DNA from: a virus
Lineage: Duplodnaviria; Heunggongvirae; Uroviricota; Caudoviricetes
Length of the DNA: 21,994 nt
IMG/VR virus record: IMGVR_UViG_2802429253_000005
Span: 1-21,994 of that record
Reading direction: 5' to 3' (one strand)
Part shown: positions 1-16,188 of the stretch, one piece after another
How the letters are laid out: each line of letters begins with the position of its first letter
Numbering within the stretch: the stretch's first letter is position 1
Made by a program: the position numbers and the translations under genes
The notes under the pieces: model-generated
Told to the model about the DNA's origin: nothing
What the model saw: the letters and a program-made list of their open reading frames with translations, nothing else
Database searches by the model: none

Positions 1-158
1 TGTGAGTCAGCGAATTACATAGGGGCTCGCAGCTTTATGGCTGCAATAAAGCCGGATATAAAGCTGCAACCTACCGTCAATGTCAAAACAATGGAAGCTG
101 TGCAAAACGGGATGCGTTCATATAAATTCCCCATAGCTTCCCTACCAGGAAGGTAGGC

Positions 159-190
159 ATAAAAAACCAGCAATAACAGGCTGGTTTATA
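159..190 (-). terminator. Intrinsic terminator immediately downstream of the tRNA 3' end (minus-strand sense)
   Basis: Inverted repeat AAACCAGC (164-171) / GCTGGTTT (180-187) with an 8-nt loop; on the minus strand the stem is followed directly by a T-run (complement of A161-A166). Confidence 0.6.
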
Positions 191-199
191 TAATCTTTT

Positions 200-246
200 T
201 GGTCGGCACGAGAGGATTTGAACTTCCGATCCCCGACACCCCATGA
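200..246 (-). other. Partial tRNA gene, 3' ~46 nt only (tRNA-Pro-like); putative prophage attachment-site core
   Basis: Reverse complement reads CATGGGGTGTCGGGGATCGGAAGTTCAAATCCTCTCGTGCCGACCA: T-loop TTCAAATCC, acceptor 3' strand and terminal CCA. Sequence on the tRNA 5' side (247-290) has no matching acceptor strand (no CGGCACG), so the gene is not intact. tRNA-Pro identity is from memory of enterobacterial proL-type sequences, not from a search. Confidence 0.55.
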
Positions 247-540
247 CACTGCTTGTAAAACGCTGAGAGCCGCGCTATTGCTGGTTAAAAGCACTATTCA
301 TATGTATAAACAAACAGTGCTTTTTCAACAAAATCTGCTCTATATACTTCAATGGCTTAAGTGGTGGTTTCTCCCCATGCTTGGTAGGTATAATACCTTG
401 ATGCTAAAGTAGGTTACTCACTTGAAGAAACAGCTAGTTAGTATCAATTATGTTGCTCCAGCTGACTGAAAAAAGTTATCAATGATGCATGGAACATACG
501 CCCTTGAATTTTTCATTAGATTTTAGAAAAGGAATTGAGC

Positions 541-1422
541 ATGGGTTTAGCTGAGTGGTTTTGCGGATTTTGCTCCAATCTGACTGTAAAAGATGGTGGA
601 ACAATTTCAACTAGATATAGGAATATAACGAAGCGTTTAAATACGGATTTTTGGGATAGCAGTTCTGATACTTCTCATAGTCTCTACGTTGGATCATATG
701 GTCGGAACACAGCTACGCAAGGCTTGAGCGATCTGGATATGATTTTTCAGCTACCATATTCCGAGTATCAAAAATACAATAGCTACTTAGGAAATGGGCA
801 GTCAGCATTGCTTCAAGCGGTTAAGAGATCTATTGAAAAAACCTATGCTACCACTAGTATTAGAGGTGACGGTCAAGTGATCCTTGTACCGTTCAATGAT
901 GGAATTACATTTGAAGTCGTTCCAGCTTTCCTCAATGTTAGTGATAGTTACACATTTCCTGATGCGAACGGTGGTGGCCGTTGGAGGATTACAAATCCAA
1001 AGCCAGAAATTTCTGCAATGAGGTTAAGAAATAACATTACCAATAACAATTTGGTGCAACTTTGTAGAATGGCAAGAGCTTGGAAGCGTAAATGGGATGT
1101 ACCTATAAGTGGTTTACTCATTGATACGCTTGCGTATCAATTCATTGAAAATTGGGCGCATAGAGATAAGTCGTATCTTTACTACGATTTCATGAGTCGT
1201 GATTTCTTCAAATGGATGGCTGATCAAGATACGAGTAAGGAGTATTGGAAAGCGCCAGGAAGTGGTCAGTATGTCTATGGTAAAGGGCTTTTCCAATATA
1301 AAGCAAAACGGTGCTATAACATTTCACTCGAAGCTATAGAGCATGAAATGGCGACCCCAAAACGCGAATGGTCGGCTAAGCAAAAATGGCGGGAGATTTA
1401 TGGATCAACATTTCCAGACTAA
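541..1422 (+). CDS. Pol-beta superfamily nucleotidyltransferase, CD-NTase/SMODS-like (candidate signal synthase)
   Basis: ORF of 293 aa from ATG 541 (GGAA 6 nt upstream; the track's 535 start is TTG). Contains GSYGRNTATQGLSDLDMIF, i.e. a G[S]x9-13 Dh[DE]h nucleotidyltransferase active-site signature, with further acidic residues downstream (RGDGQ, FNDG). Size is typical of cGAS/DncV-like or SMODS enzymes, not of small MNT antitoxins. AT-rich codon usage. Confidence 0.6.
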   Translation: MGLAEWFCGFCSNLTVKDGGTISTRYRNITKRLNTDFWDSSSDTSHSLYVGSYGRNTATQGLSDLDMIFQLPYSEYQKYNSYLGNGQSALLQAVKRSIEKTYATTSIRGDGQVILVPFNDGITFEVVPAFLNVSDSYTFPDANGGGRWRITNPKPEISAMRLRNNITNNNLVQLCRMARAWKRKWDVPISGLLIDTLAYQFIENWAHRDKSYLYYDFMSRDFFKWMADQDTSKEYWKAPGSGQYVYGKGLFQYKAKRCYNISLEAIEHEMATPKREWSAKQKWREIYGSTFPD

Positions 1423-1981
1423 GGATACACCTGAATCTAGAAGGGTTTTAGAAGGGCAGATCAGAGAGTGTTATGGTCGGGTCGTTTACTCACATAAGAC
1501 GCATGAAAAATGCTCAGACATTCTCCTATCTCGACTATCTTCTATAAAGTTTTGGCAAATAATTCTCTCCGCCTTAACTACTGGAGGCTTTCTAGCAACT
1601 TTTTTCGGCGCGGGTGAAGTAGGCACGGGGGTTGGGATTGTTGTTTCAACACTGCTTCTCATTCTTAACGCTTATACCAAAGATTATGACCTTGGTGAGT
1701 TGGCGCAAAAACATAAGCAGGCTGCAAATGAGATCTGGTTAATCCGAGAAAAGTATTTATCATTGCTTACAGACTTAGCAATGGGTGAAAAACCAATCGA
1801 GCAATTGCAGTCAGAGCGGGATTCGTTACTCGAGAGTTTACATTCAGTGTATTCAGGCTCTCCTAGTACAACATTTGAAGCTTATAAAAAAGCACAGGAC
1901 GCATTAAAAAACAAAGAAGATTTAACATTTTCTGAAGAAGAAATAGATGCTTTTCTTCCCAAGGAACTGAAAAGAAGATAA
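1400..1981 (+). CDS. 2-TM membrane protein with helical C-terminal region (SLATT-like candidate effector)
   Basis: ATG at 1400 is in frame with track ORF 1343-1981 and overlaps the upstream gene's last 23 nt (coupled operon). Two adjacent hydrophobic helices (FWQIILSALTTGGFLATFF and VGTGVGIVVSTLLLILNAY) followed by a charged, helical tail. SLATT assignment is inference from architecture only. Confidence 0.5.
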   Translation: MDQHFQTKDTPESRRVLEGQIRECYGRVVYSHKTHEKCSDILLSRLSSIKFWQIILSALTTGGFLATFFGAGEVGTGVGIVVSTLLLILNAYTKDYDLGELAQKHKQAANEIWLIREKYLSLLTDLAMGEKPIEQLQSERDSLLESLHSVYSGSPSTTFEAYKKAQDALKNKEDLTFSEEEIDAFLPKELKRR

Positions 1982-1992
1982 ATATGTTGCGA

Positions 1993-2026
1993 GGGCAAAT
2001 ATAAATATTTGCCCCTATTTTTTTAT
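1993..2026 (+). terminator. Intrinsic terminator ending the nucleotidyltransferase/2-TM operon
   Basis: Perfect hairpin GGGCAAATA-TAAA-TATTTGCCC (1993-2014) followed by CTATTTTTTTATTT. Confidence 0.65.
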
Positions 2027-2122
2027 TTGTTAATATTAATTTTAGCAGGGCTAACTTTCCGGTAAGAATTAATTACTGGTCATATGCTCCTTGGTTAATA
2101 AAATTCTATGCCTTACTTGGTG

Positions 2123-2503
2123 CTAGCTGGCTTTAATTTCTCCATGTGGAACTACAACCCAGTCGATATGGTTTTGCGTGTAGATTTTAGTTGATTTCGC
2201 ATCGCTGTGTGCCATTCGTCCTTGTGGATCGATGCCCTGCTGATCAAAAAGATGTGCTGCTAAGGCGCGAATTTCGTGAAAGGTTGGCCTTTCATCCATC
2301 GGCCGTTTGTCATATAAACCCAGCTTGTCACGCGTAGCTGAAAACGACCGACTCAAATAGTCTGGTGCAACTTGAGTGGGATGAGAAACTTCTTTGCTGC
2401 GTTTAACCTGCCGTTCCGGGATCTGGTGAACGATAAATGGGCTGGCCACGTTATTGCGACTTTCATCAATGATCCGCTTCAATTCGTCACCAATCGGTGA
2501 CCG
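2123..2503 (-). pseudogene. int: Truncated lambda-family tyrosine integrase (C-terminal catalytic fragment only)
   Basis: Translation ends ...RPTFHEIRALAAHLFDQQGIDPQGRMAHSDAKSTKIYTQN..., matching the lambda Int C-terminus pattern (PTFHELRSLSARLY...GH.SD.M...Y) with the conserved Arg, His and Tyr. The frame hits a stop at 2504-2506 and the upstream sequence is unrelated, so ~230 N-terminal residues are missing. Confidence 0.8.
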
Positions 2504-2676
2504 CTACATGACGGGAACGCTTACAATCTATTAATGTCTACTAAGTGCTAGGAGCGGACATTGGTTAATGGGGATATGTCATTCGCCTGGGGCAGATCAA
2601 GAAAGTAAAAATCCCAGCTGTCGATAATTGGAATCCATGATAAGGTTTACGGGTAACTGATTGATAAATAAATTGA

Positions 2677-2874
2677 ATGGAATATGGAAAAATGACAAAG
2701 TCAATAGCGGATAAATCTGTAACTGATTTAACTAAAGAAATCGATAAATTAAAGAAAATTGCCAAAGATCTTGAAGATGTATTACCAGAAAAAACACCAC
2801 AAATTAATTCAGCAAAAAAAATCATTGACGATGCAATAAACGAAAGAGAAAAAGAGATAGAAAAGCGTTTCTAA
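2677..2874 (+). CDS. Small highly charged, probably coiled-coil protein (hypothetical)
   Basis: 65-aa ORF (alternative in-frame ATG at 2692) rich in K/E/D with heptad-like spacing; AT-rich; followed by a hairpin terminator. No recognisable family. Confidence 0.35.
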   Translation: MEYGKMTKSIADKSVTDLTKEIDKLKKIAKDLEDVLPEKTPQINSAKKIIDDAINEREKEIEKRF

Positions 2875-2897
2875 GCATAACAATAGACTAGTCTCTG

Positions 2898-2927
2898 GGA
2901 GGCCGTACCAGCGGCCTTTCTTCTTCC
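2898..2927 (+). terminator. Intrinsic terminator after the small coiled-coil ORF
   Basis: Hairpin AGGCCG-TACCAG-CGGCCT followed by TTCTTCTTCCC (moderately T-rich). Confidence 0.4.
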
Positions 2928-3240
2928 CGTAATCTAGTAAAATCGTCGGTTTTTAATCAATTAATTAACTCATCTATTACCAACTCCTGGTTGGTTGCTA
3001 ATGATGTCATAGTGTCGCTAACGGCCTGAATTACTCAGTCCGTTCTTCGCTCAAAGCGGGCTAGAAGGTTAGCTTGCGTCGGACTTGGCGTATTTAAAGA
3101 AGTGCTGGTGGTGACAGGTTATTATGTTCCATTTCTACAGAACAAAATCACAGAAACTATACCCAATAGTTGTATTGAATCACTGACGAGACAGCCTCAT
3201 ATTTATCAGGACTGGTGTACGTCCAATACAGGAGGTTGTG

Positions 3241-3330
3241 GTGCTGGTTCTCAAATGTGCGCTGGCTATTGCTGCTGTAATGGCAATTTATTGCCTTGCT
3301 GTTGTTCTTATGGATCGCCTTTCTGACTGA
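3241..3330 (+). CDS. Possible small hydrophobic membrane peptide (29 aa)
   Basis: Strong AGGAGG (3230-3235) 5 nt upstream of GTG 3241; frame reads (M)LVLKCALAIAAVMAIYCLAVVLMDRLSD, one predicted TM helix with a short charged tail. The track's Cys-rich 74-aa ORF is an alternative frame of the same DNA. Confidence 0.3.
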   Translation: MLVLKCALAIAAVMAIYCLAVVLMDRLSD

Positions 3331-3541
3331 TTTCATATTGGCGAGGTAACGGGAGTTAAGTAGAATGGCTGCGGGTGCTTGAGGCTATCTGTCTCAGGCA
3401 TGAACACCAAAGGCAGATAGAGAAAAGCCCCAGTTAACATTACGCGTCCTGCAAGACGCTTAACATTAATCTGAGGCTCAATCTATGAACGGCAAATCTA
3501 GGTTAGCCTCTTACGTGCCGAAAGGCAAGGAGAAGCAGGCT

Positions 3542-3697
3542 ATGAAGCAGCAAAAGGCGATGCTAATCGCCCTGATCGTCATCTGTTTAACCGTCATAGT
3601 GACGGCACTGGTAACGAGGAAAGACCTCTGCGAGGTACGAATCCGAACCGGCCAGACGGAGGTCGCTGTCTTCACAGCTTACGAACCTGAGGAGTAA
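3542..3697 (+). CDS. hok: Hok/Gef-family type I toxin (membrane-depolarising peptide)
   Basis: 51-aa product MKQQKAMLIALIVICLTVIVTALVTRKDLCEVRIRTGQTEVAVFTAYEPEE is near-identical to the HokD/RelF and Gef consensus as I recall it; GGAG-type RBS upstream of ATG 3542; the track ORF from 3485 is an in-frame upstream extension. Confidence 0.85.
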   Translation: MKQQKAMLIALIVICLTVIVTALVTRKDLCEVRIRTGQTEVAVFTAYEPEE

Positions 3698-3839: not shown

Positions 3840-4232
3840 ATGAAGAAACTTGTTTTAGTTGCAGGTGTAATGATTGCAACAGTAATGTTGGGAGGGTGTG
3901 CAGCAAAGATCGATCCTGCGTTGAAAGCAGAAGCAATGAAACCACTAACATGTAAAGATGAAAAGCAATGTGACTTTTATTGGAAACGAGCGCAATTCTG
4001 GTTGGCTAATAATTCCTCATGGAAAATTCAAACGGCGACAGACACGCTAATTTCCACTTATAACCCTTCACCAAATAGCCCATTCCTCGCTTATCAAGTG
4101 AGTAAAATGCCAAATGAAGATGGATCTGCAAGAATTTTCATCAAGCCTTTTTGCGATAATATGTTTGGCTGTCAACCAAACCCCTATCAGGCAATTGTTT
4201 CCTTTAAAAACTTCGTTAAAACTGGGCAGTAA
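3840..4232 (+). CDS. Secreted lipoprotein, Cys-rich (hypothetical; possible moron)
   Basis: N-terminal signal peptide MKKLVLVAGVMIATVMLGGC with an L-G-G-C lipobox; GGGAG RBS 5 nt upstream; six cysteines in the mature part; own terminator downstream. Confidence 0.7.
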   Translation: MKKLVLVAGVMIATVMLGGCAAKIDPALKAEAMKPLTCKDEKQCDFYWKRAQFWLANNSSWKIQTATDTLISTYNPSPNSPFLAYQVSKMPNEDGSARIFIKPFCDNMFGCQPNPYQAIVSFKNFVKTGQ

Positions 4233-4459: not shown

Positions 4460-4732
4460 ATGGCGCACAATACCAAACATCACAATTCTGATACCGACCT
4501 TGCCAGCAGGCACGGGCTGCGTTCTCACGCATTCAAATATGACTGGTATCAGCACGATCCCTGCACTGAAGAACAGGCCGAATGGCTGATTCATAACTAC
4601 CGCAGACGTGGGTATGAGTTTAAGAAAGCCCTTAGCCTCGACTACCGTCACTGGATAATCTACGTCAGGCTCCCTTATTCCGAACGCCCGCCGCGTCCAT
4701 CCCGCACATTCCAGCAACGCATCTGGAGGTAA
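4460..4732 (+). CDS. Hypothetical phage protein (90 aa), translationally coupled to the downstream DUF968-like gene
   Basis: ATG 4460 in frame with track ORF 4379-4732 (the 4379 start lies inside the terminator hairpin); stop TAA 4730-4732 sits just before GTG 4734; basic, His/Arg-rich product with no recognised motif. Confidence 0.4.
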   Translation: MAHNTKHHNSDTDLASRHGLRSHAFKYDWYQHDPCTEEQAEWLIHNYRRRGYEFKKALSLDYRHWIIYVRLPYSERPPRPSRTFQQRIWR

Positions 4733-4733
4733 C

Positions 4734-5789
4734 GTGCGGGTATTACTTCGACCTGTTCCGGTACCGGAACTTGGGCTGGTGGTGCTAAAGCCGGGCCGTG
4801 AATCCATGCAGGTATTTCATAATCCTCGAGTGCTGGTGGAACCGGAGCCAAAAAGCATGCGTAATCTGCCGTCCGGGGTCGTTCCTGCCGTTCGCCAGCC
4901 GCTGGCGGAGGATAAATCATTACTGCCATTTTTCAGCGACGAACGAGTGATTCGTGCTGCTGGTGGCGCTGGCGCATTGTCTGACTGGTTACTGCGCCAT
5001 GTTAAATCCTGCCAGTGGCCATACGGCGATTATCACCACAGTGAAACCGTCATTCACCGTTATGGCGCTGGCGCGATGGTGTTGTGCTGGCACTGCGACA
5101 ACCAGCTGCGTGACCAGACATCCGAATCACTCGAGCAACTTGCTCATCAAAACCTGTCAGCATGGATGATTGACGTCATACGCCATGCAATGAATGGCAC
5201 GCAGGAGCGGGAGTTATCGCTGGCTGAATTATCCTGGTGGGCGGTCTGCAATCAAGTGGCGGACGCGCTTCCGGAGGCAGTATTACGTCGTTCTTTGGGG
5301 TTACGTGCGGAAAAAATCCGCTCCTTGTACCGCGAAAGCGACATCGTACCGGGAGAGCAGACCGCCACCAGCATACTGAAGCAGCGCACAAAAAATCTTG
5401 CGCCGCTGCCTCACGCCCACCAGCAAAACCCGCCACAGGAAAAGACGGTGGTCAGCATTGCTGTTGATCCGGAGTCACCGGCTCAGTATCTCCAGCGCCA
5501 GAAACCACAACGGGAAGAGATGCCTGTATACACGCGCTGGGTAAAAACGCAGAAATGCATGACGTGCGGTAATCAGGCAGATGATCCGCATCACATCATT
5601 GGTCATGGACTGGGAGGGATGGGAACAAAGGCTGATGATTTGTTTGTTATTCCGCTGTGCCGTAAATGTCATAACGAACTGCACGCCGGGGTAAAAGATT
5701 TTGAAGAAAAACACGGCAGCCAGCTGTTGTTGCTGATTCGTTTTTTAATGCACGCGAGAAATTCGGGTGTCCTGAAGTGGAAAGCATAA
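4734..5789 (+). CDS. DUF968-like prophage protein with Cys/His zinc-binding clusters and a C-terminal HNH-like motif (YdfU-like)
   Basis: GTG 4734 preceded by GGAGG (4723-4727). Motifs CWHCDNQLRD and C-terminal CMTCGN...HHIIGHG...CRKCHNELH. Position directly upstream of rusA and Q matches lambdoid nin regions. Confidence 0.65.
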   Translation: MRVLLRPVPVPELGLVVLKPGRESMQVFHNPRVLVEPEPKSMRNLPSGVVPAVRQPLAEDKSLLPFFSDERVIRAAGGAGALSDWLLRHVKSCQWPYGDYHHSETVIHRYGAGAMVLCWHCDNQLRDQTSESLEQLAHQNLSAWMIDVIRHAMNGTQERELSLAELSWWAVCNQVADALPEAVLRRSLGLRAEKIRSLYRESDIVPGEQTATSILKQRTKNLAPLPHAHQQNPPQEKTVVSIAVDPESPAQYLQRQKPQREEMPVYTRWVKTQKCMTCGNQADDPHHIIGHGLGGMGTKADDLFVIPLCRKCHNELHAGVKDFEEKHGSQLLLLIRFLMHARNSGVLKWKA

Positions 5790-6170
5790 ATGACTGAGCG
5801 CATAGAATTTGTTTTGCCTTACCCGCCGTCGGTGAACACCTACTGGCGCCGTCGTGGTGGCGTATATTTTGTATCAAAAGCCGGTGAGCGTTATCGCCGG
5901 GATGTGGCGCTTATTGTTCGCCAGCAGCGACTGAAATTAAATCTGTCCGGTAGATTGGCAATCAGGATTATTGCAGAGCCACCGGATAAGCGCCGCCGCG
6001 ACCTGGACAATATCCTGAAGGCACCACTGGATGCACTGACACATGCAGGACTGCTTATCGACGATGAGCAGTTTGACGAAATCAATATAGTGCGCGGTCA
6101 GCTCGTTCCTGGTGGTCGACTGGGCGTGAAAATTTACGAAATAATGCATGACGGGCAGGTCAATAAATGA
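5790..6170 (+). CDS. rusA: Holliday-junction resolvase RusA
   Basis: 126-aa product with PYPPSVNTYWRRRGG...RRRDLDNILKAPLDAL...DDEQ, matching RusA family motifs (PPS.N.Y, RRRDLDN, catalytic acidic residues). ATG overlaps the upstream stop (TAAATG). Confidence 0.85.
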   Translation: MTERIEFVLPYPPSVNTYWRRRGGVYFVSKAGERYRRDVALIVRQQRLKLNLSGRLAIRIIAEPPDKRRRDLDNILKAPLDALTHAGLLIDDEQFDEINIVRGQLVPGGRLGVKIYEIMHDGQVNK

Positions 6171-6988
6171 AGCTGGAAGATTTACCGAAATACTACTCCC
6201 CAAAATCGCCTGGCCTGACTGATGCATCCGTCTCGACGTCAAAAGATACGCTGAGTATCACTGATGTGATGGCTGCGCAGGGTATGACACAAAACCGTGC
6301 TGAGATGGGATTTTCTGCGTTCCTGGGGAAAATGGGCATTAGTATGAATGACAGGGCGCGGGCAACAGAATTACTGGCAGATTATGCATTAAGTCAGTGC
6401 GATCGCGTGGCGGCGTTGAGAAAACTTCCGGCAGAAATAAAACCGGCAGTGATGCGCATTATGGCTTCGTACGCTTTTGAGGATTATGCCCGCAGTGCAG
6501 CTAGTAAAAAACAGTGCCCTTGTTGCGGCGGGAAAAAATTTATTGAAAGCGTAGTTTTTACAAACAAGGTCCAGTATCCGGATGGCAAGCCGCCAGTATG
6601 GGCAAAGTGTACAAAAGGCGTGTATCCGTCTTACTGGGAAGAATGGAAAAAAGTCCGGGAAGTGGTAAAAGTTGCCTGTCCTGAATGCGGGGGAAAGGGT
6701 GAGGTCTCCACCGCCTGTAAGGATTGCCGTGGGCGTGGTGTAGCCATTCATCGTGAAGAGTCAGAAAAACGGGGCATGCCTTTTATCAGGGACTGCCAGC
6801 GTTGTGGCGGTCGTGGCTATGAAAGACTGCCGTCGACGGAGGCATTTAATGCCATATGTGAGGTGACAAATCAGATAACACGCGCGTCATGGGAAAAAAC
6901 GGTTAAGCAATTCTATGACACTCTGGTGGTTCGGTTTGACATTGAAGAGGCATGGGCGGAGCGGCAGTTAAAAAAGGTAACCAGATAA
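6167..6988 (+). CDS. Late-gene antiterminator Q-like protein with four CxxCxGxG zinc-finger repeats
   Basis: Gene sits immediately upstream of a promoter/terminator pair and the lysis cassette; ATGA overlap with the rusA stop. Repeats CPCCGGKK, CPECGGKG, CKDCRGRG, CQRCGGRG. Function is assigned from position, not from recognised homology. Confidence 0.55.
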   Translation: MKLEDLPKYYSPKSPGLTDASVSTSKDTLSITDVMAAQGMTQNRAEMGFSAFLGKMGISMNDRARATELLADYALSQCDRVAALRKLPAEIKPAVMRIMASYAFEDYARSAASKKQCPCCGGKKFIESVVFTNKVQYPDGKPPVWAKCTKGVYPSYWEEWKKVREVVKVACPECGGKGEVSTACKDCRGRGVAIHREESEKRGMPFIRDCQRCGGRGYERLPSTEAFNAICEVTNQITRASWEKTVKQFYDTLVVRFDIEEAWAERQLKKVTR

Positions 6989-6993
6989 CAAGG

Positions 6994-7022
6994 TTGATTT
7001 TTCCGGAATCTGTGGTAAATTC
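6994..7022 (+). promoter_or_regulatory. Candidate late promoter (pR'-like)
   Basis: TTGATT (6994-6999), 15-nt spacer, then TGgTAAATT (7012-7020, extended -10 like), just downstream of the Q-like gene. Confidence 0.4.
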
Positions 7023-7068
7023 GCCCTAACGATGGGCGTTTTATGCCTGACGTTAGAAGAATTTTTAC

Positions 7069-7094
7069 AACCCGCCGCCGTGCGGGTTTTTTTG
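7069..7094 (+). terminator. Intrinsic terminator (tR'-like) shortly downstream of the candidate late promoter
   Basis: AACCCGC-CGCCGT-GCGGGTT hairpin followed by TTTTTT; the promoter-short transcript-terminator arrangement is that of lambdoid Q-controlled late transcription. Confidence 0.6.
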
Positions 7095-7373
7095 TCTGCA
7101 CAACAGGTAAGAGCACTGAACCCGCAGACCTCGCGGAATTGGTGAAAGGTGCCGCGCAGTGCTCTTTCCGTTGTGCTGAATTAAGCGAATGCCGGAAGTA
7201 GAACCGGATCAACAAATGCGTACAGGCGTCATCGCCGCCCAGCAACAGCACAACCCAAACTGAGCCGTAGCCACTGGCTGTCCTGAATTCATCAGTGATA
7301 GTTATGCTGCGGCCTTCTTTTTCCCATTCCCAATATAAGAACTACGCAATCCGTTACTTGCGGAGGCGTTGCT

Positions 7374-7589
7374 ATGAAATCAATGGACAAAATCTCAACT
7401 GGCATTGCCTACGGAACATCCGCTGGTAGTGCGGGATACTGGTTTTTGCAGTGGTTGGATCAGGTCAGTCCGTCACAGTGGGCTGCAATTGGAGTGCTTG
7501 GAAGCCTTGTGTTGGGTTTTCTCACTTATCTGACAAATCTGTATTTCAAAATCAGAGAAGACAGACGAAAGGCTGCGAGAGGTGAATAA
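7374..7589 (+). CDS. S: Class II holin, phage 21 S-type pinholin with dual-start motif
   Basis: [28 protein letters not shown]...[12 protein letters not shown] matches S21 (Met1 and Met4 give the antiholin and holin forms); two TM segments. Confidence 0.85.
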
Positions 7590-8086
7590 TGCCTCCATCA
7601 TTACGAAAAGCCGTTGCTACGGCTATTGGTGGCGGGGCTATTGCTATAGCATCTGTGTTAATCACTGGACCAAGTGGTAACGATGGTCTGGAAGGTGTCA
7701 GTTACATACCATACAAAGATATTGTTGGTGTATGGACTGTATGTCACGGACACACCGGAAAAGACATCATGCTCGGTAAAACGTATACCGAAGCAGAATG
7801 CAAAGCCCTCCTGAATAAAGACCTTGCCACGGTCGCCAGACAAATTAACCCGTACATCAAAGTCGATATACCGGAAACAATGCGCGGCGCTCTTTACTCG
7901 TTCGTCTATAACGTGGGTGCTGGCAATTTCAGAACATCGACGCTTCTTCGCAAAATCAACCAGGGCGATATCAAAGGTGCATGTGATCAACTACGTCGCT
8001 GGACATACGCTGGTGGTAAGCAATGGAAAGGTCTCATGACTCGCCGTGAGATTGAGCGTGAAGTCTGTTTGTGGGGGCAACAATGA
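7589..8086 (+). CDS. R: SAR endolysin (T4-lysozyme-like muramidase with N-terminal signal-anchor-release domain)
   Basis: N-terminal Gly/Ala-rich weak TM segment [20 protein letters not shown]; remainder matches phage 21 R lysozyme as recalled; ATG overlaps the holin stop (TAATG). Confidence 0.85.
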
Positions 8087-8550
8087 GCAGAGTAACCGCG
8101 ATTACCTCCGCTCTGGTTATCTGCATCATCGTCTGCCTGTCGTGGGCTGTTAATCATTACCGTGATAACGCCATCGCTTACAAAGAGCAGCGCGACAAAA
8201 ACGCCAGAGAGTTGAAGTTGGCGAACGCCACCATCGCTGACATGCAGCAGCGTCAGCGTGATGTTGCTGCGCTCGATGCAAAGTACTCGAGAGAATTAGC
8301 TAATGCGAAAGCTGAAAATGAAACTCTGCGCGCTGATGTTGCCGCTGGTCGTAAGCGCCTGCGGGTCAATGCCAGTTGCTACGCAGCCGTGCGTGAATCC
8401 ACCGGACCCACCAGCGTGGATAATGCAACCATCCCCCGACTGGCAGACACCGCTGAACGGGATTATTTCACCCTCAGAGAGCGGCTGATGACGATGCAGA
8501 TGCAACTGGAAGGGGCACAGGAGTATATCCGCACTCAGTGCATTAAGTAG
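8083..8550 (+). CDS. Rz: Rz-like inner-membrane spanin (i-spanin)
   Basis: ATG 8083 overlaps the endolysin stop (ATGA); N-terminal TM helix followed by a long coiled-coil periplasmic domain; Rz1 is embedded in the +1 frame. Confidence 0.8.
8303..8488 (+). CDS. Rz1: Rz1-like outer-membrane lipoprotein spanin (o-spanin), embedded within Rz
   Basis: [21 protein letters not shown]... with lipobox and proline-rich mature region ([27 protein letters not shown]), very similar to lambda Rz1. Confidence 0.8.
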
Positions 8551-8592
8551 CCTTTTTATCGTGGTAAACATTTCGCAGGGTATGAGGTATTT

Positions 8593-8943
8593 ATGCCATC
8601 ACTAATCCCACGTGCCTGCCGTAAGCGTGGATGTGCAGGTACAACCACAGACAGTTCTGGTTACTGCGATAAACATCGTGGCGAAGGATGGGTACAGCAT
8701 CAACGCGGACTGAGTCGCCACCAGCGTGGCTATGGCTCGAAATGGGATGCCATACGTGCGCGCATACTGAAGCGTGATAATCATCTGTGTCAAAACTGCC
8801 TGCGCAATGGGAGAGCCGTTGAAGCCAGAACTGTGGACCACATCATTCCGAAAGCTCATGGTGGCACAGATGCAGACAGTAACCTGCAGAGTCTGTGCTG
8901 GCCCTGCCATAAAGCAAAAACAGCGCGCGAACGCATCAATTGA
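8593..8943 (+). CDS. HNH endonuclease associated with the terminase
   Basis: 116 aa with CxxC...HxxxxxxGG...N...CxxCH pattern (DHIIPKAHGG, CWPCH); located just upstream of terS as in HK97-like cos phages. Confidence 0.8.
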   Translation: MPSLIPRACRKRGCAGTTTDSSGYCDKHRGEGWVQHQRGLSRHQRGYGSKWDAIRARILKRDNHLCQNCLRNGRAVEARTVDHIIPKAHGGTDADSNLQSLCWPCHKAKTARERIN

Positions 8944-9090
8944 TAACAGCTCCCATCTGCAGGGGAGGGGCGGGTCAAATCTCTGCAACCCTGGCTGTTC
9001 AGTACCGCCGCCTGACCTTTCCTCGCATCGCCGCAGGTTCGAAAACTTTTTTTTGGAATGTGATTAAATGATTGATAGGTAAAACCGATT

Positions 9091-9573
9091 ATGTCAGGAC
9101 CCCCGAAAACCCCGCCACGCCTGCATTTGATACGAGGCAACCCCTCAAAGCGCCCCGTTAAAGACCCCAAAAAAGCCGCTAAAAAGGATGAAAAAGGTCT
9201 CCCTAAAATTCCGCAACATTTAGGGGCGCAGGGGAAGTACTGGTTCAGGCGAATGGCGGAAGAACTGAATGCGGAAGGGATCATTTCTCAGCTTGATGCG
9301 CGTGCACTCGAGTTACTGGTGGAAGCCTACACCGAATACCGGCATCACTGCGAAACACTCGATGTTGAGGGGTACACCTACCGCACGGAAACGCAGAACG
9401 GTGATGTGCTGATTAAGGCACACCCGGCTGCTGCGATGAAAGCGGATGCCTGGAAGCGGATCCGGGCGATGCTTGCAGAATTTGGTATGTCACCGGCAAG
9501 CCGGGCGAAAGTAAATACCGCCGGACCGGATGATGTTGATCCGCTGGCAGAGCTTTTAAAAGCGAGAGACTGA
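9091..9573 (+). CDS. terS: Terminase small subunit (P27/HK97-type)
   Basis: 160 aa, basic N-terminus; immediately upstream of and overlapping the large terminase gene (TGATG). Confidence 0.7.
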   Translation: MSGPPKTPPRLHLIRGNPSKRPVKDPKKAAKKDEKGLPKIPQHLGAQGKYWFRRMAEELNAEGIISQLDARALELLVEAYTEYRHHCETLDVEGYTYRTETQNGDVLIKAHPAAAMKADAWKRIRAMLAEFGMSPASRAKVNTAGPDDVDPLAELLKARD

Positions 9574-11330
9574 TGGCAAAAGTGGCTGACGGGATCCGCT
9601 ACGCCGAACGTGTTGTTGCAGGAGAAATAGTCGCTGGCGAATTTGTCCGTCTGGCCTGCCAGCGTTTTCTTGATGATCTGAAGTATGGCGAAGAGCGGGG
9701 GATTTATTTTAGTGAACCCCGTGCGCAGCACATCCTGAATTTCTACAAATTTGTGCCTCATGTGAAAGGGGCGCTGGCAGGCCAGCCCATTGAATTGATG
9801 GACTGGCATGTATTTATCCTCATTAATATTTTTGGTTTTGTCATTCCGCTGGTGAATGAAGAGACCGGGGAAGTTGTCATGCGCAGCGATGGCAGCGGAC
9901 GCCCGGTGATGGTGCGCCGGTTCCGGACGGCGTACAACGAAGTTGCCCGTAAAAACGCAAAATCAACCCTGTCATCGGGTATCGGTCTGTATATGACGGG
10001 GGCAGATGGTGAAGGCGGGGCTGAGGTGTATTCAGCCGCAACCACGCGTGACCAGGCCAGAATTGTGTTTGAAGACGCCAAAAATATGGTCAGAAAAGCC
10101 CGGTCGACACTCGGGCGGTTGTTTGATTTCAACAAGCTGGCGATTTACCAGGAGCAGAGCGCATCAAAATTTGAACCGCTTTCCTCGGATGCAAACAACC
10201 TGGACGGTCTGAACATCCACTGCGCCATTATTGATGAGCTGCATGCTCATAAAACCCGTGACGTGTGGGACGTTCTGGAAACGGCAACCGGTGCCCGTCT
10301 GCAGTCCCTGTTATTTGGTATCACCACGGCGGGCTTTAACAAGGAAGGGATTTGTTACGAGCAACGCGATTACGCCATCAAGGTATTGCGAGGCTATAAC
10401 AGTGACGTGGAGGGCGCGGTAAAAGATGACTCCTACTTTGCGATTATTTACACGCTCGATGAGGGAGATGATCCGTTTGATGAAACGGTCTGGCAGAAAG
10501 CGAATCCGGGCCTGGGCATCTGTAAACGCTGGGATGATCTGCGTCGTCTGGCGAAAAAAGCGAAGGAGCAGGTCTCGGCGCGGGTGAATTTTTTCACCAA
10601 ACACATGAATGTGTGGGTCACTGCCGAATCGGCCTGGATGGACATGATTAAGTGGGAGAAGTGCGAATATATTGCTCCACAGCATGAGCTGAAAACGTAT
10701 CCCATGTGGGTCGGTGTCGACCTTGCTCATAAGATTGATATCTGCGCGGCGGCAAAACTCTGGCGAACCGATAACGGGCATGTTCATGCCGATTTTAAAT
10801 TCTGGCTTCCGGAAGGGCGACTGGATCGGTGTTCACGGCAGCAGGCAGAACTTTACCGGAAGTGGGCGGAGATGGATAAGCTCATCCTGACGGATGGTGA
10901 TGTTATCGATCATGCTCAGATAAAAAGTGACCTACTGGAATGGATTGGCGGTGAAAACCTGAGGGAACTGGGATTTGACCCGTGGAGCGCAATGCAGTTC
11001 AGTCTGGCGCTGGCTGAAGAAGGGATACCGCTGGTGGAAGTTCCGCAGACGGTCCGCAATCTGTCAGAGGCCATGAAGGAAACGGAATCACTGGTCTATG
11101 CCGGGCGTTTCCATCACAGCAATCATCCGGTCATGAACTGGATGATGTCTAACGTTACGGTGAAACCGGACAAAAACGACAATATTTTCCCGAATAAATC
11201 CACGCCGGAAGCCAAAATCGACGGTCCTGTTGCGATGTTTACAGCAATGAGCCGGATGCTGGTCAATGGCGGTGAACCGGAGCCGGATCTGTCTGAACAC
11301 CTGATTAGTGTTGGTATCCGCTCGCTTTAA
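9573..11330 (+). CDS. terL: Terminase large subunit (ATPase plus nuclease)
   Basis: 585 aa; position and size; Walker-like motifs (e.g. [10 protein letters not shown] as Walker B-like); HK97-type gene order. Confidence 0.85.
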
Positions 11331-11341
11331 CCGAGGGCATT

Positions 11342-11524
11342 ATGTTTCTGATAATTCTCACGCCACTGGTGGGTGTGCTGGGGGCGCTTTTGCTGTCGTA
11401 TGGTGCCTGGCTGATTTATCCCCCGTCGGGTTTTGTTGTTGCCGGGGCGCTGTGTCTGTGCTGGTCGTGGCTGGTTGCGCGTTATCTCGATCGCGGTCAG
11501 CGGGTCGCCTCCGGAGGTGAGTAA
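11342..11524 (+). CDS. Small membrane protein (2 predicted TM helices), hypothetical
   Basis: GAGGG RBS upstream of ATG 11342; stop overlaps the portal ATG (TAATG), so it is embedded in the packaging operon; very hydrophobic 60-aa product. Confidence 0.45.
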
Positions 11525-12765
11525 TGTTTTTCCAGGGGCTTTTTCAACGCAAAAATAACACTCCCGTTACAACACCCGGGATGCTTGCGGAAGAGTTGGG
11601 ATTGTCATACGACACCTATACCGGAAAGCGGATCAGCAGTCAGCGGGCCATGCGGCTGACGGCGGTGTATTCCTGCGTCAGAGTGCTGGCGGAGTCTGTT
11701 GGTATGCTGCCCTGTAGCCTCTACAAAATCACCGGCACCCTTAAAACACGGGCGGTGGATGAACGACTGCATAAGCTGATTTCGGCAAAACCCAATGGCT
11801 ACATGACACCGCAGGAATTCTGGGAACTGGTCATTGTCTGCCTGTGTTTGCGGGGGAATTTTTACGCTTACAAGGTGAAGGCGCTGGGAGAAGTGGTGGA
11901 GCTTCTTCCGATAGATCCGGGTTGTGTGGAGCCGAAGCTGAACTGTCAGTGGCAGCCGGTTTATCAGGTGACGTTTCCGGATGGTTCCGTGGATGTGCTG
12001 ACCCAGGATGAAATCTGGCATGTGCGTACTCTGACGCTGGACGGACTGGTCGGGCTGAATCCCATTGCGTATGCGCGTGAGGCCATTTCACTGGCAGCGG
12101 CAACCGAGGAGCACGGCGCCAGGTTGTTTGGTAACGGTGCTGTGACATCCGGTGTGTTGCGTACGGAACAAAAGCTCACGCCGGATGCTTATGAGCGCAT
12201 GAAGAGGGATTTTGAGGAGCGTCATCTTGGGCTGGGTAATGCGCACCGTCCGATGATTCTGGAAATGGGGCTGGACTGGAAGCCGGTGGCACTGAATGCC
12301 GAGGACAGCCAGTTCCTGGAAACCCGCAAGTTTCAGTTGGAAGAAATCTGTCGTCTTTTCCGCGTGCCACTGCATATGGTGCAGAACACTGACCGCGCCA
12401 CCTTCAACAATATTGAAGAGCTGGGGCTTGGCTTCATTAACTATTCCCTTGTGCCGTATCTGACCCGTATTGAACAGCGGATCAATACAGGGCTGGTGAG
12501 GGAGAGTAAAAAGGGAAAATTTTACGCCAAATTTAATGCCGGGGCGTTGTTGCGTGGTGACATGAAATCCCGCTTTGAAGCGTATGCCACGGGGATCAAC
12601 TGGGGGATTTATTCCCCTAATGACTGCCGTGATCTGGAAGATATGAATCCCCGACCGGGCGGTGATGTGTATCTGACACCGATGAACATGACCACCAGTC
12701 CCTCTGCTGGCGATGACAACGGTAAGAAAAAGGAGAGTGGAGATGCAGACAAAACAGCGTCTTGA
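11524..12765 (+). CDS. Portal protein (HK97 family)
   Basis: 413 aa; GGAGGTGA RBS; lies between terminase and prohead protease; acidic C-terminus. Confidence 0.85.
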   Translation: MFFQGLFQRKNNTPVTTPGMLAEELGLSYDTYTGKRISSQRAMRLTAVYSCVRVLAESVGMLPCSLYKITGTLKTRAVDERLHKLISAKPNGYMTPQEFWELVIVCLCLRGNFYAYKVKALGEVVELLPIDPGCVEPKLNCQWQPVYQVTFPDGSVDVLTQDEIWHVRTLTLDGLVGLNPIAYAREAISLAAATEEHGARLFGNGAVTSGVLRTEQKLTPDAYERMKRDFEERHLGLGNAHRPMILEMGLDWKPVALNAEDSQFLETRKFQLEEICRLFRVPLHMVQNTDRATFNNIEELGLGFINYSLVPYLTRIEQRINTGLVRESKKGKFYAKFNAGALLRGDMKSRFEAYATGINWGIYSPNDCRDLEDMNPRPGGDVYLTPMNMTTSPSAGDDNGKKKESGDADKTAS

Positions 12766-13393
12766 TATACCGCTGAACCTGAAATCCGTCAGTGATTCCG
12801 GGGAATTTGAAGGTTACGGTTCTGTTTTTGGTGTTAAGGACAGCCACGATGATGTGGTGGTCCCCGGAGCCTTTACCACAACACTCCAGAAATGGAGCGA
12901 AAAAAAGGCGCTGCCTGCGTTGCTCTGGCAGCACCGCATAGATGAGCCCATCGGTGTGTACACCGAAATGAAAGAAGATGATGTCGGGCTTTATGTCAGG
13001 GGACGATTACTCATTGATGATGATCCCCTGGCAAAACGTGCACATGCCCATATGAAGGCCGGTTCTTTAACCGGCCTTTCTATTGGCTACATCCTGAAAG
13101 ACTGGGAGTACGACCGTGAAAAAGGGGTATTCCTGCTGAAAGAGATCGACCTGTGGGAGGTCAGTCTGGTGACGTTTCCTTCCAATGATGAGGCTCGCAT
13201 CAGCGATGTGAAAAATGCGCTGGCGCGTGGGGAGATCCCTGATCAGAAAATCATTGAGCGGGTCCTGCGCGATGTTGGACTTTCGCGAACCCAGGCCAAA
13301 GCATTCATGGCCGGGGGATACGGCGCTTTATCCCTGCGTAATGCTGAGGATGTGGATGCCGCACTGAATGCATTGAAAAATCTTAAATTTTAA
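12743..13393 (+). CDS. Prohead maturation protease (HK97 family)
   Basis: ATG 12743 preceded by AGGAGAG; lies between portal and major capsid protein; ~216 aa. Confidence 0.8.
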   Translation: MQTKQRLDIPLNLKSVSDSGEFEGYGSVFGVKDSHDDVVVPGAFTTTLQKWSEKKALPALLWQHRIDEPIGVYTEMKEDDVGLYVRGRLLIDDDPLAKRAHAHMKAGSLTGLSIGYILKDWEYDREKGVFLLKEIDLWEVSLVTFPSNDEARISDVKNALARGEIPDQKIIERVLRDVGLSRTQAKAFMAGGYGALSLRNAEDVDAALNALKNLKF

Positions 13394-13406
13394 CCAGGAG
13401 TAAATA

Positions 13407-14633
13407 ATGGCTGTTGATATTAAAGACGTTGAACAGGTCGCGCAGGATTTGCAGCAGAAGTTTGACGATTTTAAGGCAAAAAACGACAAGCGCATTGACG
13501 CGATCGAACAGGAAAAAAGCAAGCTGGCCGAACAGGTGGAAAGCCTGAACGGGCAAATCAGCGAGCTGGAGAACCTGAAAAGCGACCTGGAAAAAGAGCT
13601 GGCAGACATCAAGCGTCCGGCAGGCGGCACGCAAAATAAAGTTGCCGGTGAACACAAAGAAGCGTTTATCGGATTTATGCGCAAGGGGCGTGAAGACGGT
13701 CTGCGTGAACTTGAACGTAAGGCGCTTCAGGTAGGTAATGATGAAGATGGTGGTTATGCCATTCCGGAAGAACTGGATCGTACCATCCTGACGCTGCTGA
13801 AAGATGAGGTGGTGATGCGCCAGGAAGCCACTGTGATCACCCTCGGTGGCTCGGATTATAAAAAACTGGTGAATCTGGGCGGCACTAAGTCCGGATGGGT
13901 GGGGGAAACGGATACGCGTCCGGAAACCGCCACCTCAAAACTGGGGCTGATTGAACCTTTTATGGGGGAAATCTACGGCAACCCGCAGGCTACCCAGAAA
14001 ATGCTCGATGATGCTTTTTTCAATGTGGAAGACTGGATCAACAGTGAACTGGCGCTGGAATTTGCCGAACAGGAAGAAATTGCCTTTACCAGTGGCGACG
14101 GCAGCAAAAAACCAAAAGGTTTTCTGGCTTATGAGTCCACCGATGAAGATGACAAGACCCGTGCGTTTGGCAAACTTCAGCACATCGCTTCCGGTTCGGC
14201 TTCTGGCGTGACCGCTGATGCGATCATTAAACTGATTTACACCCTGCGCAAGGCGCACCGTAGCGGCGCGAAGTTCATGATGAATAACAGCAGCCTGTTT
14301 GCCATTCGCCTGCTGAAGGATAACGACGGAAATTATCTGTGGCGTCCGGGCATTGAGCTGGGTCAGCCTTCTTCACTGGCGGGGTATGGCATCGTTGAGA
14401 ATGAGCAGATGCCGGATATTGCTGCCGATGCAAAAGCCATTGCGTTTGGTAACTTCAAACGCGGCTATACCATTGTTGATCGCATCGGTACCCGTATCCT
14501 GCGTGACCCGTACACCAACAAACCGTTTGTGGGCTTTTATACCACCAAGCGAACCGGCGGTATGCTGGTGGATTCTCAGGCGATTAAGCTGATGAAAATT
14601 GGGGCCGCAACCCGCCAGAAAGCCGCGGCGTAA
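13407..14633 (+). CDS. Major capsid protein (HK97 fold) with N-terminal coiled-coil scaffolding (delta) domain
   Basis: 408 aa; AGGAG RBS; N-terminal ~100 aa strongly coiled-coil (EQEKSKLAEQVESLNGQISELENLKSDLEKELADIK); follows the protease. Confidence 0.9.
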   Translation: MAVDIKDVEQVAQDLQQKFDDFKAKNDKRIDAIEQEKSKLAEQVESLNGQISELENLKSDLEKELADIKRPAGGTQNKVAGEHKEAFIGFMRKGREDGLRELERKALQVGNDEDGGYAIPEELDRTILTLLKDEVVMRQEATVITLGGSDYKKLVNLGGTKSGWVGETDTRPETATSKLGLIEPFMGEIYGNPQATQKMLDDAFFNVEDWINSELALEFAEQEEIAFTSGDGSKKPKGFLAYESTDEDDKTRAFGKLQHIASGSASGVTADAIIKLIYTLRKAHRSGAKFMMNNSSLFAIRLLKDNDGNYLWRPGIELGQPSSLAGYGIVENEQMPDIAADAKAIAFGNFKRGYTIVDRIGTRILRDPYTNKPFVGFYTTKRTGGMLVDSQAIKLMKIGAATRQKAAA

Positions 14634-14646
14634 TGCGGTTTTTTAT

Positions 14647-14666
14647 GCCCGCACAGTGTTGCGGGC
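14647..14666 (+). other. Stem-loop immediately after the major capsid gene
   Basis: GCCCGCA-CAGTGT-TGCGGGC; not followed by a U-tract, so more likely a stabiliser or processing site than a full terminator. Confidence 0.35.
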
Positions 14667-14677
14667 AGGAGTTTCTG

Positions 14678-14995
14678 ATGGCAGCAATAGTGGAAAAACT
14701 CAGGGCGCAGTGCCGTATTGATACAGATGATGCAACTGATGATGAGTTACTGATGCTGTATTTCCGGGCTGCCTGCCGCAAGGCAGAAAATTTTATCAAC
14801 CGTAAGCTTTATGAGGAGACGGTGCCGGAAGGTGATCCTGACGGGGTGCTTATAGCTGATGATGTTTTGCTGGCGCTCATGTTGCTGGTCGGACACTGGT
14901 ACGAAAACCGGGAAAATTCCTCAGATGTCAGCAAGGCACCAGTCCCGTTTGGTTTTTCTTCTCTGCTGGAGCCTTATCGTTTTATTCCTTTGTAG
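14678..14995 (+). CDS. Head-tail connector protein (gp6-like)
   Basis: ATG 14678 preceded by AGGAG; 105 aa; position right after the capsid gene. Confidence 0.55.
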   Translation: MAAIVEKLRAQCRIDTDDATDDELLMLYFRAACRKAENFINRKLYEETVPEGDPDGVLIADDVLLALMLLVGHWYENRENSSDVSKAPVPFGFSSLLEPYRFIPL

Positions 14996-15003
14996 GAGGA
15001 ACC

Positions 15004-16129: not shown

Positions 16130-16149
16130 GGTCGTTAATGATTTTACCC

Positions 16150-16172
16150 ACCCGCCGCTGGCGGGTTTTTTA
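16150..16172 (+). terminator. Intrinsic terminator/attenuator upstream of the major tail gene
   Basis: CCCGCC-GCT-GGCGGG hairpin followed by TTTTTTATTTT. Confidence 0.55.
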
Positions 16173-16188
16173 TTTTCAGGAGACGAGT

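Follow-up and report, generated by a model that had tools for sequence, protein, structure and literature searches.

The window analysed here is a 21,994-nucleotide stretch of lambdoid prophage DNA in which two overlapping open reading frames lie on the plus strand, at positions 541-1422 and 1400-1981, with a terminator downstream. The first (gene 1) encodes a predicted CD-NTase of 293 amino acids, that is, a SMODS-domain cyclic oligonucleotide synthase identified by Pfam, PADLOC, AF2 and Foldseek, and the second (gene 2) encodes a predicted SLATT_4 two-transmembrane effector of 193 amino acids, identified by Pfam, PADLOC, NCBIfam and RefSeq. Both frames and their 23-nt overlap are present as an earlier sequence-only reading of this DNA had claimed. 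A Shine-Dalgarno element on the plus strand (AAGGA, 529-533) lies upstream of the gene 1 ATG at 541, GGGAG at 1391-1395 lies upstream of the gene 2 ATG at 1400, and the same two starts are called by RefSeq in a near-identical locus. An upstream start for gene 2 at ATG 1343, which would give a protein of 212 amino acids, was discarded: matches to the family profiles start around residue 10-17 of the 193-residue form, RefSeq and all distant homologues have 193 amino acids, and GGGAG stands before 1400.

The two-gene operon is closed by an intrinsic terminator on the plus strand (1993-2024), recognized by a terminator scan and by its folding energy. It consists of a 9-bp hairpin at 1993-2014 followed by CTATTTTTTT, and a related prophage (L002) has kept the hairpin. 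The terminator had been described as strong; the hairpin and T-run are indeed there, but a folding energy of -11.8 kcal/mol makes it moderate rather than exceptionally strong. The pair is also more AT-rich than the surrounding phage genes, as had been proposed, with a GC content of 40.1% for 541-1981 versus 52.0% for 4700-21994. The native promoter that had been placed from position 365 onward is not established, as a consensus scan of the plus strand upstream of gene 1 (365-540) gave no sigma-70 promoter match. A perfect TATAAT occurs at 389-394 without an acceptable -35 element, and the DNA homology with L002 begins only about 35 nt 5' of the gene 1 ATG, and that comparison therefore gives no indication of a conserved promoter.

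A prophage end inside another prophage

The operon sits in an AT-rich, imported segment of 2.9 kb (125-3036, GC 39.9%) that comprises an att remnant, the predicted CBASS genes, an integrase remnant and a small ORF. This segment is 99.7-99.8% identical across 46 complete E. coli genomes and is located inside a Qin-like lambdoid prophage. Its left edge is marked by the 3' fragment of a tRNA-Pro gene on the minus strand (196-247), an att-site remnant of 52 nt that has 96% identity over 52 nt to the annotated tRNA-Pro of many E. coli genomes, while ARAGORN detects no complete tRNA in the window or in related loci. On the other side of the operon lies a tyrosine integrase pseudogene (2123-2522, minus strand), recognized by its match to the L002 integrase, by RefSeq and by Pfam, of which the C-terminal third remains. 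In L002 the same cassette is flanked by an intact integrase of 392 residues, and the remnant shares 86% identity with residues 274-392 of that protein; RefSeq names the remnant 'recombinase, frameshifted; incomplete', and it gives a weak match to Pfam Phage_integrase. An Rfam scan of positions 1-3600 identified sok only, the remaining matches being attributable to chance, and a hok/sok killer locus adjoins the two-gene operon. The arrangement illustrates how defence cargo can travel: the end of one prophage, with the order "att site, CBASS, integrase", has come by recombination to lie in the interior of another lambdoid prophage of Qin-like type. Expression of the cassette from within this degraded segment with its truncated integrase is assumed.

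The flanks of the operon hold only the tRNA fragment, the integrase remnant, small ORFs and hok/sok, and none of the neighbouring ORFs matches a CBASS accessory protein in PADLOC or Pfam. Similarly, genes 1 and 2 are the sole genes that the distant loci have in common. The lack of ancillary genes (Cap2/Cap3 E1-E2/JAB, HORMA/TRIP13, Cap6-8 and similar) therefore assigns the operon to CBASS type I.

RefSeq already has names for identical proteins, which occur on at least 1000 contigs, and of 5426 complete E. coli genomes 47 carry the cassette; in one E. coli strain (H26), among the 46 at 99.7-99.8% identity, it is split in two by an IS1203 insertion. Isolated phage genomes contain no DNA match to the cassette, and by protein comparison the isolated phages with a relative are two Listeria phages only, at 44% identity. 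The pair of 293 and 193 amino acids with its 23-nt overlap also occurs in enterobacterial prophages, Ignavibacteria, groundwater contigs and a Brocadiaceae MAG, and in the last of these (L009) it belongs to a chromosomal defence island, among PIN, TIR_2, methyltransferase, PDDEXK and ResIII genes. The dN/dS values of the two genes against diverged copies (0.06 and 0.03) indicate strong purifying selection, and distant pairs, with 70-80% amino-acid identity retained, show saturation at synonymous sites.

The predicted cyclase and its membrane partner

The assignment of gene 1 to the CD-NTases is based on several lines of evidence. Pfam SMODS (PF18144) matches it across the complete profile (positions 1-164 of 164, E=2e-50), the PADLOC cyclase model PDLC00786 covers it end to end (residues 1-292 of 293, 477 bits), and NCBIfam CBASS_cyclase_b matches with E=1e-33, with the NCBIfam CBASS cyclase equivalog models remaining under their cutoffs. 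The Pol-beta/CD-NTase active-site signature on which the sequence-only reading had relied is found at residues 51-69 (GSYGRNTATQGLSDLDMIF), and the catalytic set consists of G51-S52 (nt 691-696), D64 and D66 (nt 730-738) and E125 (nt 913-915). This GS/D/D/E arrangement is the family consensus, present in 54 of 75 unfused relatives of about 290 amino acids and in 34 of 37 relatives of the size that includes an AGS-C domain, and its complete retention in gene 1 argues that catalysis matters here. The AF2 model is of high confidence (pLDDT 96.7; 289 of 293 residues score at least 90, and none of its segments falls below 50), and structure prediction followed by Foldseek recovers a CD-NTase fold: the best 50 matches in the PDB are all bacterial CD-NTases, headed by Pseudomonas aeruginosa CdnD (PaCdnD) with a TM score of 0.75. 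In addition, the family profile of gene 1 detects PaCdnD (1e-28), BcCdnD (1e-20), EclCdnD (4e-13) and EcCdnC (2e-10). A best match to an antibiotic nucleotidyltransferase or an MNT antitoxin, which would have spoken against this assignment, is absent; that identity was rejected, as NTP_transf_2 reaches only E=0.007, under the cutoff, and the best matches are SMODS and CD-NTase. The searchable text of papers contains no mention of the RefSeq accession of gene 1.

In protease-sensing CD-NTases, some 30 disordered residues form a loop exposed on the surface, at the centre of the bilobed fold (PMC12991175). The AF2 model of gene 1 (293 amino acids) contains neither a disordered activation loop nor an AGS-C domain, and with no disordered segment the protein falls outside the activation-loop class as modelled; proteolytic cleavage of such a loop is therefore unlikely to be the trigger. 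The evidence on the clade of gene 1 conflicts. Clade D structures are its best matches by both sequence and fold, at only about 24% identity, and gene 1 has the motifs SDLDM and FEV, as compared to PDVDI and LDL in clade D. Relatives of gene 1 at 45-49% identity carry AGS-C, a domain that among type I CBASS enzymes is reported from clades B, F, G and H only (bioRxiv 10.1101/2023.05.21.541620). Similarity to solved structures thus points to clade D and the AGS-C-bearing relatives point away from it; clade F has no solved structure for comparison.

Gene 2 is matched over the full Pfam SLATT_4 profile (PF18186, positions 1-165 of 165, E=4e-74), end to end by the PADLOC effector model '2TM' (PDLC00696, 281 bits), and by NCBIfam SLATT_4 with 150.7 bits against a cutoff of 55, and its RefSeq entry, WP_000371964.1, is a 'SLATT domain-containing protein'. 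The two adjacent transmembrane helices that had been proposed correspond to hydrophobic segments at residues ~50-70 and 73-93, a hairpin encoded by positions 1547-1678 on the plus strand that is defined by hydropathy and AF2. Kyte-Doolittle values over 19-residue windows reach 1.4-1.87 only in this region, with a maximum of 1.87, and these two helices of transmembrane grade run counter to a soluble gene 2 product. The AF2 model (pLDDT 75.9) is all-helical, with helices at 11-61, 64-69 and 73-95 followed by more helices. Searches of the PDB with gene 2 gave no meaningful match by sequence and no match by fold with E<0.001; coiled-coil, chemoreceptor and ESCRT-like fold matches were set aside as generic helical noise. 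The SLATT_4 protein has no recognizable nucleotide-sensor domain either.

Candidate anti-phage operon and rival explanations

Taken together, the locus is very probably a two-gene anti-phage operon of CBASS type I that rides as cargo in a lambdoid prophage of E. coli, a reading to which we assign a probability of roughly 0.9 on the basis of sequence and structural models. The sequence-only reading had paired a nucleotide-signal synthase with a SLATT membrane effector in the manner of a minimal CBASS, and this stands up well: SMODS, SLATT_4 and PADLOC all match at full length, and the Pfam E-values of both proteins are far beyond chance. The two-gene system is a known, catalogued family and not a new variant. 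PADLOC- or DefenseFinder-style annotation would flag the locus automatically, which makes it one more copy of a catalogued system. Membrane proteins, SLATT4 included, are the largest class of CBASS effectors (PMC12480259), type I CBASS systems whose effectors are TM or SLATT proteins protect E. coli from many dsDNA phages (bioRxiv 10.1101/2023.05.21.541620), and anti-phage activity has been confirmed for a type I CBASS from Lactococcus whose SLATT effector belongs to PF18186 (PMC11381338).

By analogy with the family, the compact CD-NTase would be inactive in the lysogen and would be switched on when another phage infects the cell, converting NTPs to a cyclic oligonucleotide. This molecule would then act on the cytoplasmic helical part of the SLATT_4 protein, which would be anchored by its two-helix hairpin and might assemble or open in the inner membrane, so that membrane integrity would collapse. 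The infected cell would die or arrest before the phage cycle ends (abortive infection), and the lysogen population and the resident prophage would be protected. We infer from the family that gene 1 synthesizes a cyclic oligonucleotide, that phage activates it and that SLATT_4 disrupts the membrane when gated by the signal. PaCdnD and BcCdnD, the nearest solved relatives, make cA3, although gene 1 is only about 24% identical to them. The weakest of these inferred steps is signal reception, since SLATT_4 lacks a recognizable sensor domain and has neither a solved structure nor a structural neighbour in the PDB.

It is at this step that a different arrangement has to be considered, in which the NTase-fold protein docks on SLATT_4 and the gating takes place by contact or in cis, with no freely diffusing cyclic oligonucleotide; the pair would then still act by abortive infection, though without classical second-messenger signalling. 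Four representative relatives (P0160, P0164, P0166 and P0168, 489-508 amino acids) are single-chain SMODS-SLATT_4 fusions, in all four of which the third catalytic acid is replaced by N or H, and in one of them the first Asp and the GS serine are missing too. Direct gating would also fit a SLATT_4 protein that has no known ligand-sensing domain, and a 23-nt overlap that is tight and conserved would suit co-translation of the two proteins in stoichiometric amounts. On the other hand, gene 1 retains the full GS/D/D/E set, the four fusions may represent a single derived lineage, and ordinary signalling is compatible with fusion as well; as an account of this locus, contact gating therefore appears improbable. 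A somewhat broader proposal hinted at by the same fusions, namely that the compact cyclase and SLATT_4 are physically coupled as sensor and pore, that SLATT_4 either receives the signal in a new way or is gated directly, and that the trigger is unlike the protease-cleavage and AGS-C routes of other CBASS, is speculative and unlikely, if not quite to the same degree.

Two further readings would remove the defence function altogether. Some NTase-fold proteins (MNT) are antitoxins, and an overlapping two-gene operon on a mobile element, adjoining hok/sok, could in principle be an addiction module that stabilizes the prophage, in which a nucleotidyltransferase restrains a SLATT membrane toxin and phage defence plays no part. 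However, gene 1 resembles SMODS/CD-NTase proteins and not MNT, its structural neighbours are all CD-NTases, PADLOC models the family as CBASS, relatives defend against phage, and the Brocadiaceae pair resides in a chromosomal defence island, all of which leaves this the least probable explanation. That the cassette is a non-functional relic within a decayed import, inert in its host, is likewise very unlikely: the adjacent integrase is truncated and frameshifted, tRNA-Pro survives only as a fragment, the promoter scan gave no match and IS1203 interrupts the cassette in H26, but both ORFs, their ribosome-binding sites, the terminator and the catalytic residues are intact, the cassette is nearly invariant in the 46 genomes (the split H26 copy among them), and dN/dS against diverged copies is 0.03-0.06. 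A type I CBASS operon thus remains the preferred reading.

Relation to known systems

At 1.45 kb, the locus offers a natural and very compact instance, from E. coli, of a small cyclase combined with SLATT_4, the least understood branch of CBASS. Its closest counterparts in organization are EcCdnF04-SLATT6 and EcCdnD12-4TM (bioRxiv 10.1101/2023.05.21.541620), in which a CD-NTase is likewise combined with a small multi-TM effector in a two-gene system of E. coli or gammaproteobacteria without Cap2/Cap3 or HORMA accessory genes. Compared by description, they differ in having SLATT_6 or 4TM effectors, whereas the window combines SLATT_4 with a cyclase that lacks AGS-C. The lactococcal plasmid system pUCCL631_167/168 (PMC11381338) is also a two-gene type I system, and its PF18186 SLATT_4 effector of 190 amino acids is close in size to the 193 amino acids of gene 2; its cyclase, however, has 408 amino acids and an AGS-C sensor domain, as opposed to 293 without AGS-C in the window, and the gene order appears reversed, judging by the locus tags 167 (effector) and 168 (cyclase). 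Furthermore, that system resides on a Firmicutes plasmid and the present one on an E. coli prophage.

The closest solved structure is that of PaCdnD (PDB 6P82, 6P8J, 6P8U), which like gene 1 is a compact CD-NTase of about 300 amino acids. The two align over their full length (profile E=1e-28, Foldseek TM 0.75, 24% identity) with matching GS and DxD motifs, but differ at the third catalytic position (Asp in PaCdnD, Glu in gene 1), and PaCdnD belongs to a HORMA/TRIP13-regulated type III CBASS, whereas the window locus has no such genes. Further parallels are found in DRT10/UG17 (SLATT-5) and in the SLATT proteins with accessory roles in RADAR and DRT3, where, as predicted for the window, small effectors with 2-3 TM helices and a presumed pore-forming role are coupled to an enzyme that produces nucleic acids or nucleotides. 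The upstream enzyme is a reverse transcriptase in those other SLATT systems and a CD-NTase in the window, and SLATT_5 matches gene 2 at only E=0.02, so that its subfamily differs from that of DRT10/UG17.

Operon layout and protein families

On sequence grounds, this is a type I CBASS that has been catalogued before, a CD-NTase combined with a SLATT_4 effector and carried on a prophage. Gene 1 (541-1422, + strand) encodes a 293-aa protein and has an AAGGA motif 7 nt upstream of its ATG, and gene 2 (1400-1981, + strand) encodes a 193-aa protein with GGGAG 4 nt upstream of its ATG, the two overlapping by 23 nt in the same orientation. A terminator scan closes the pair with a 9-bp, GC-anchored hairpin at 1993-2014 that is followed by a T-run and has a folding energy of -11.8 kcal/mol, and the GC content of the pair is 40.1% as compared to 52.0% in the phage late region. 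The sequence-only reading had described this arrangement accurately, as it placed two overlapping, co-oriented ORFs at exactly these positions, credited them with their own terminator and called them richer in AT than the phage genes. It had also supposed a promoter upstream; a consensus scan of the + strand of 365-540 returned none. A perfect TATAAT hexamer lies at 389-394, 147 nt upstream of gene 1, without a recognisable -35 element, and the DNA upstream of the cassette is unlike that in its other carriers.

Gene 1 covers the entire Pfam SMODS model (E=2e-50), aligns end-to-end with the 293 positions of a PADLOC CBASS "Cyclase" model (477 bits) and matches 22 further CBASS cyclase models of PADLOC. 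AlphaFold2, given 37 diverse homologues, models it with very high confidence (pLDDT 96.7, pTM 0.91). A Foldseek search of the PDB gives only CD-NTases from bacteria among its 50 best matches, with Pseudomonas aeruginosa CdnD ranked first (TM 0.75, 24% identity). Both profile and fold thus bear out the nucleotidyltransferase identity that had been proposed from the active-site motif, GSYGRNTATQGLSDLDMIF, which is present at residues 51-69. The catalytic residues G51-S52, D64, D66 and E125 are all intact, and since this GS/D/D/E pattern is the family consensus (54 of the 75 relatives of ~290 aa, and 34 of the 37 AGS-C-sized ones), glutamate at the third acidic position is normal for gene 1 and not a defect. 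The model contains no disordered activation loop, an element that is cleaved by phage prohead proteases in clades A, G and part of clade D (PMC12991175).

The two adjacent transmembrane helices expected in gene 2 correspond to neighbouring hydrophobic helices at residues ~50-70 and 73-93. The protein covers the entire Pfam SLATT_4 model (E=4e-74), scores 281 bits against the PADLOC CBASS "2TM" effector model and exceeds the NCBIfam SLATT_4 cutoff, in agreement with the SLATT-type architecture suggested earlier. Its AlphaFold model is helical throughout with moderate confidence (pLDDT 75.9), and no relatives were found among solved structures, either by sequence or by fold.

Among the neighbouring ORFs there is no meaningful match to CBASS accessory proteins or other PADLOC families, and distant loci have only gene 1 and gene 2 in common with the window, which together indicate a minimal type I CBASS. 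The proposal of a nucleotide-signal synthase coupled to a membrane effector was therefore right, and the choice it left between a known family and a new variant falls to the known family, as both already have names in RefSeq, gene 1 as "SMODS domain-containing nucleotidyltransferase" (WP_000521772.1) and gene 2 as "SLATT domain-containing protein" (WP_000371964.1).

Prophage setting and conservation of the pair

By its sequence, the window is a lambdoid prophage, and beyond the right end of the cassette it encodes hok/sok, DUF968, RusA, antiterminator Q, lysozyme and Rz, followed by the small and large terminase, portal, Peptidase_S78 prohead protease, HK97-type capsid and tape-measure proteins. 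The CBASS is held in an AT-rich segment of 2.9 kb (125 to ~3036) that is common only to 46 carrier genomes, where a Qin-like prophage surrounds it (dicB, ydfA-D, hokD, ydfU, cspB, essD). The left start of the segment is marked by a 52-nt tRNA-Pro 3' fragment (196-247, - strand), and at its right end a tyrosine integrase survives only as its C-terminal third (2123-2522, - strand), annotated as a pseudogene and 86% identical to residues 274-392 of an intact 392-aa integrase in the enterobacterial prophages L002-L005. In these prophages, an 86% identical cassette lies between the chromosomal flank and that integrase. Read most simply, recombination seems to have brought the "att, CBASS, int" end of one prophage into the interior of another, Qin-like one, with decay around the cassette afterwards. 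Furthermore, nt 1-124 of the window do not correspond to what adjoins the segment in the 46 genomes, so more than one prophage background carries it. The segment also contains a Lys/Glu-rich, 65-aa ORF (2677-2874, + strand; a 60-aa hypothetical protein in RefSeq) with no family match beyond coiled-coil-type noise to JetC. Just to the right of the segment lies a hok/sok type I toxin-antitoxin (3373-3697, + strand; Rfam sok 110 bits, Pfam Hok/gef E=3e-23). A predicted 130-aa lipoprotein (3840-4232, + strand), whose signal peptide ends in LGGC, matches phrog_16082 over its full length, with no match in Pfam or PADLOC.

The exact sequences of gene 1 and gene 2 each occur in at least 1000 contigs, and the cassette is present in 47 of 5426 complete E. 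coli genomes, chromosomal in all, with at least 99.7% identity in 46 of the 47. In E. coli AUSMDU00014361 (match H26, NZ_CP045827.1 3327196-3330174) an IS1203-family insertion cuts it in two, a natural knockout. Proteins with 78-88% identity are found in Klebsiella, Enterobacter, Proteus, Pectobacterium, Aeromonas and viral MAGs, and this range also reaches Ignavibacteria and Brocadiaceae MAGs. All inspected loci pair a 293-aa gene with a downstream 193-aa SLATT_4 gene that overlaps it by the usual 23 nt, except for L006, where the contig end falls inside the second gene. Comparison of the E. coli proteins with the L007, L008 and L009 copies (Ignavibacteria/Brocadiaceae) gives unusually strong conservation, ~80% for the cyclase and ~70% for the effector; the overlap is kept there, and gene 2 starts with TTG in some copies. 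On the Brocadiaceae contig, the pair stands among PIN, TIR_2, large methyltransferase, PDDEXK and ResIII genes, surroundings typical of a defence island. The dN/dS values against the enterobacterial prophage copy are 0.06 for gene 1 and 0.03 for gene 2, and synonymous sites are saturated against distant copies at 70-80% amino-acid identity. The two genes are therefore, as one unit, under strong and long-standing purifying selection.

Clade of the cyclase and alternative readings

Gene 1 may be either D-like or a member of clade F, judged from partly divergent indications. Its most similar solved structures by family profile and Foldseek belong to clade D, and the family profile ranks P. aeruginosa CdnD (1e-28), Bacillus cereus CdnD (1e-20) and Enterobacter cloacae CdnD (4e-13) ahead of E. 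coli CdnC (2e-10), Bacteroides fragilis CdnB (2e-7) and CdnE (1e-4), with clade F having no solved structure for comparison. Clade D motifs have no exact match in gene 1. Gene 1 lacks an AGS-C domain, and relatives with 45-49% identity bear a C-terminal AGS_C, a domain reported in a type I screen only for clades B, F, G and H (10.1101/2023.05.21.541620). The AGS_C sensor domain (PF18134) is C-terminal in the homologues P0132, P0136, P0143 and P0155 (43-49% identity), and the relative P0201 has a type I R-M specificity (Methylase_S) domain in its place.

Some relatives hint that the nucleotidyltransferase and SLATT parts may be coupled directly, by a non-diffusible route and possibly without catalysis. 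In P0160, P0164, P0166 and P0168 (489-508 aa, 38-40% identity to gene 1), SMODS and SLATT_4 are fused into a single chain, and all four have N or H at the third catalytic acid, equivalent to E125; in P0160 the first Asp is also replaced by K, and GS by GC. The window enzyme, however, retains the complete consensus active site. A toxin-antitoxin module is contradicted by the affiliation of gene 1 with SMODS/CD-NTase rather than MNT and by the defence-island context, and a dead relic by the low dN/dS and by ORFs, signals and catalytic residues that are all intact.

Proposed mechanism and related systems

Beyond the demonstrated cyclase fold with an intact active site, two-TM effector, tight operon without accessories, conserved pair and defence-island association, the steps from infection trigger through nucleotide to the SLATT_4 membrane step are likely, as inferred from the family. 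Infection would switch the cyclase on, the resulting cyclic oligonucleotide would act on the cytoplasmic helices of SLATT_4, and the effector would then permeabilise the inner membrane, so that infection is aborted. Activation of type I CBASS and escape from it are reported to be determined by prohead protease and capsid-assembly proteins, and the resident prophage has its own Peptidase_S78 prohead protease and HK97-type capsid (12713-13393, + strand). As a compact E. coli operon, the cassette offers a convenient model for the family-wide questions of the trigger, the product and signal reception by SLATT_4.

Membrane proteins, SLATT4 included, are the most abundant class of CBASS effectors (PMC12480259), and type I CBASS with TM or SLATT effectors protects E. 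coli from many dsDNA phages (preprint 10.1101/2023.05.21.541620). Anti-phage activity is also confirmed for a lactococcal system of type I with an effector from PF18186, the Pfam family of gene 2 (PMC11381338).
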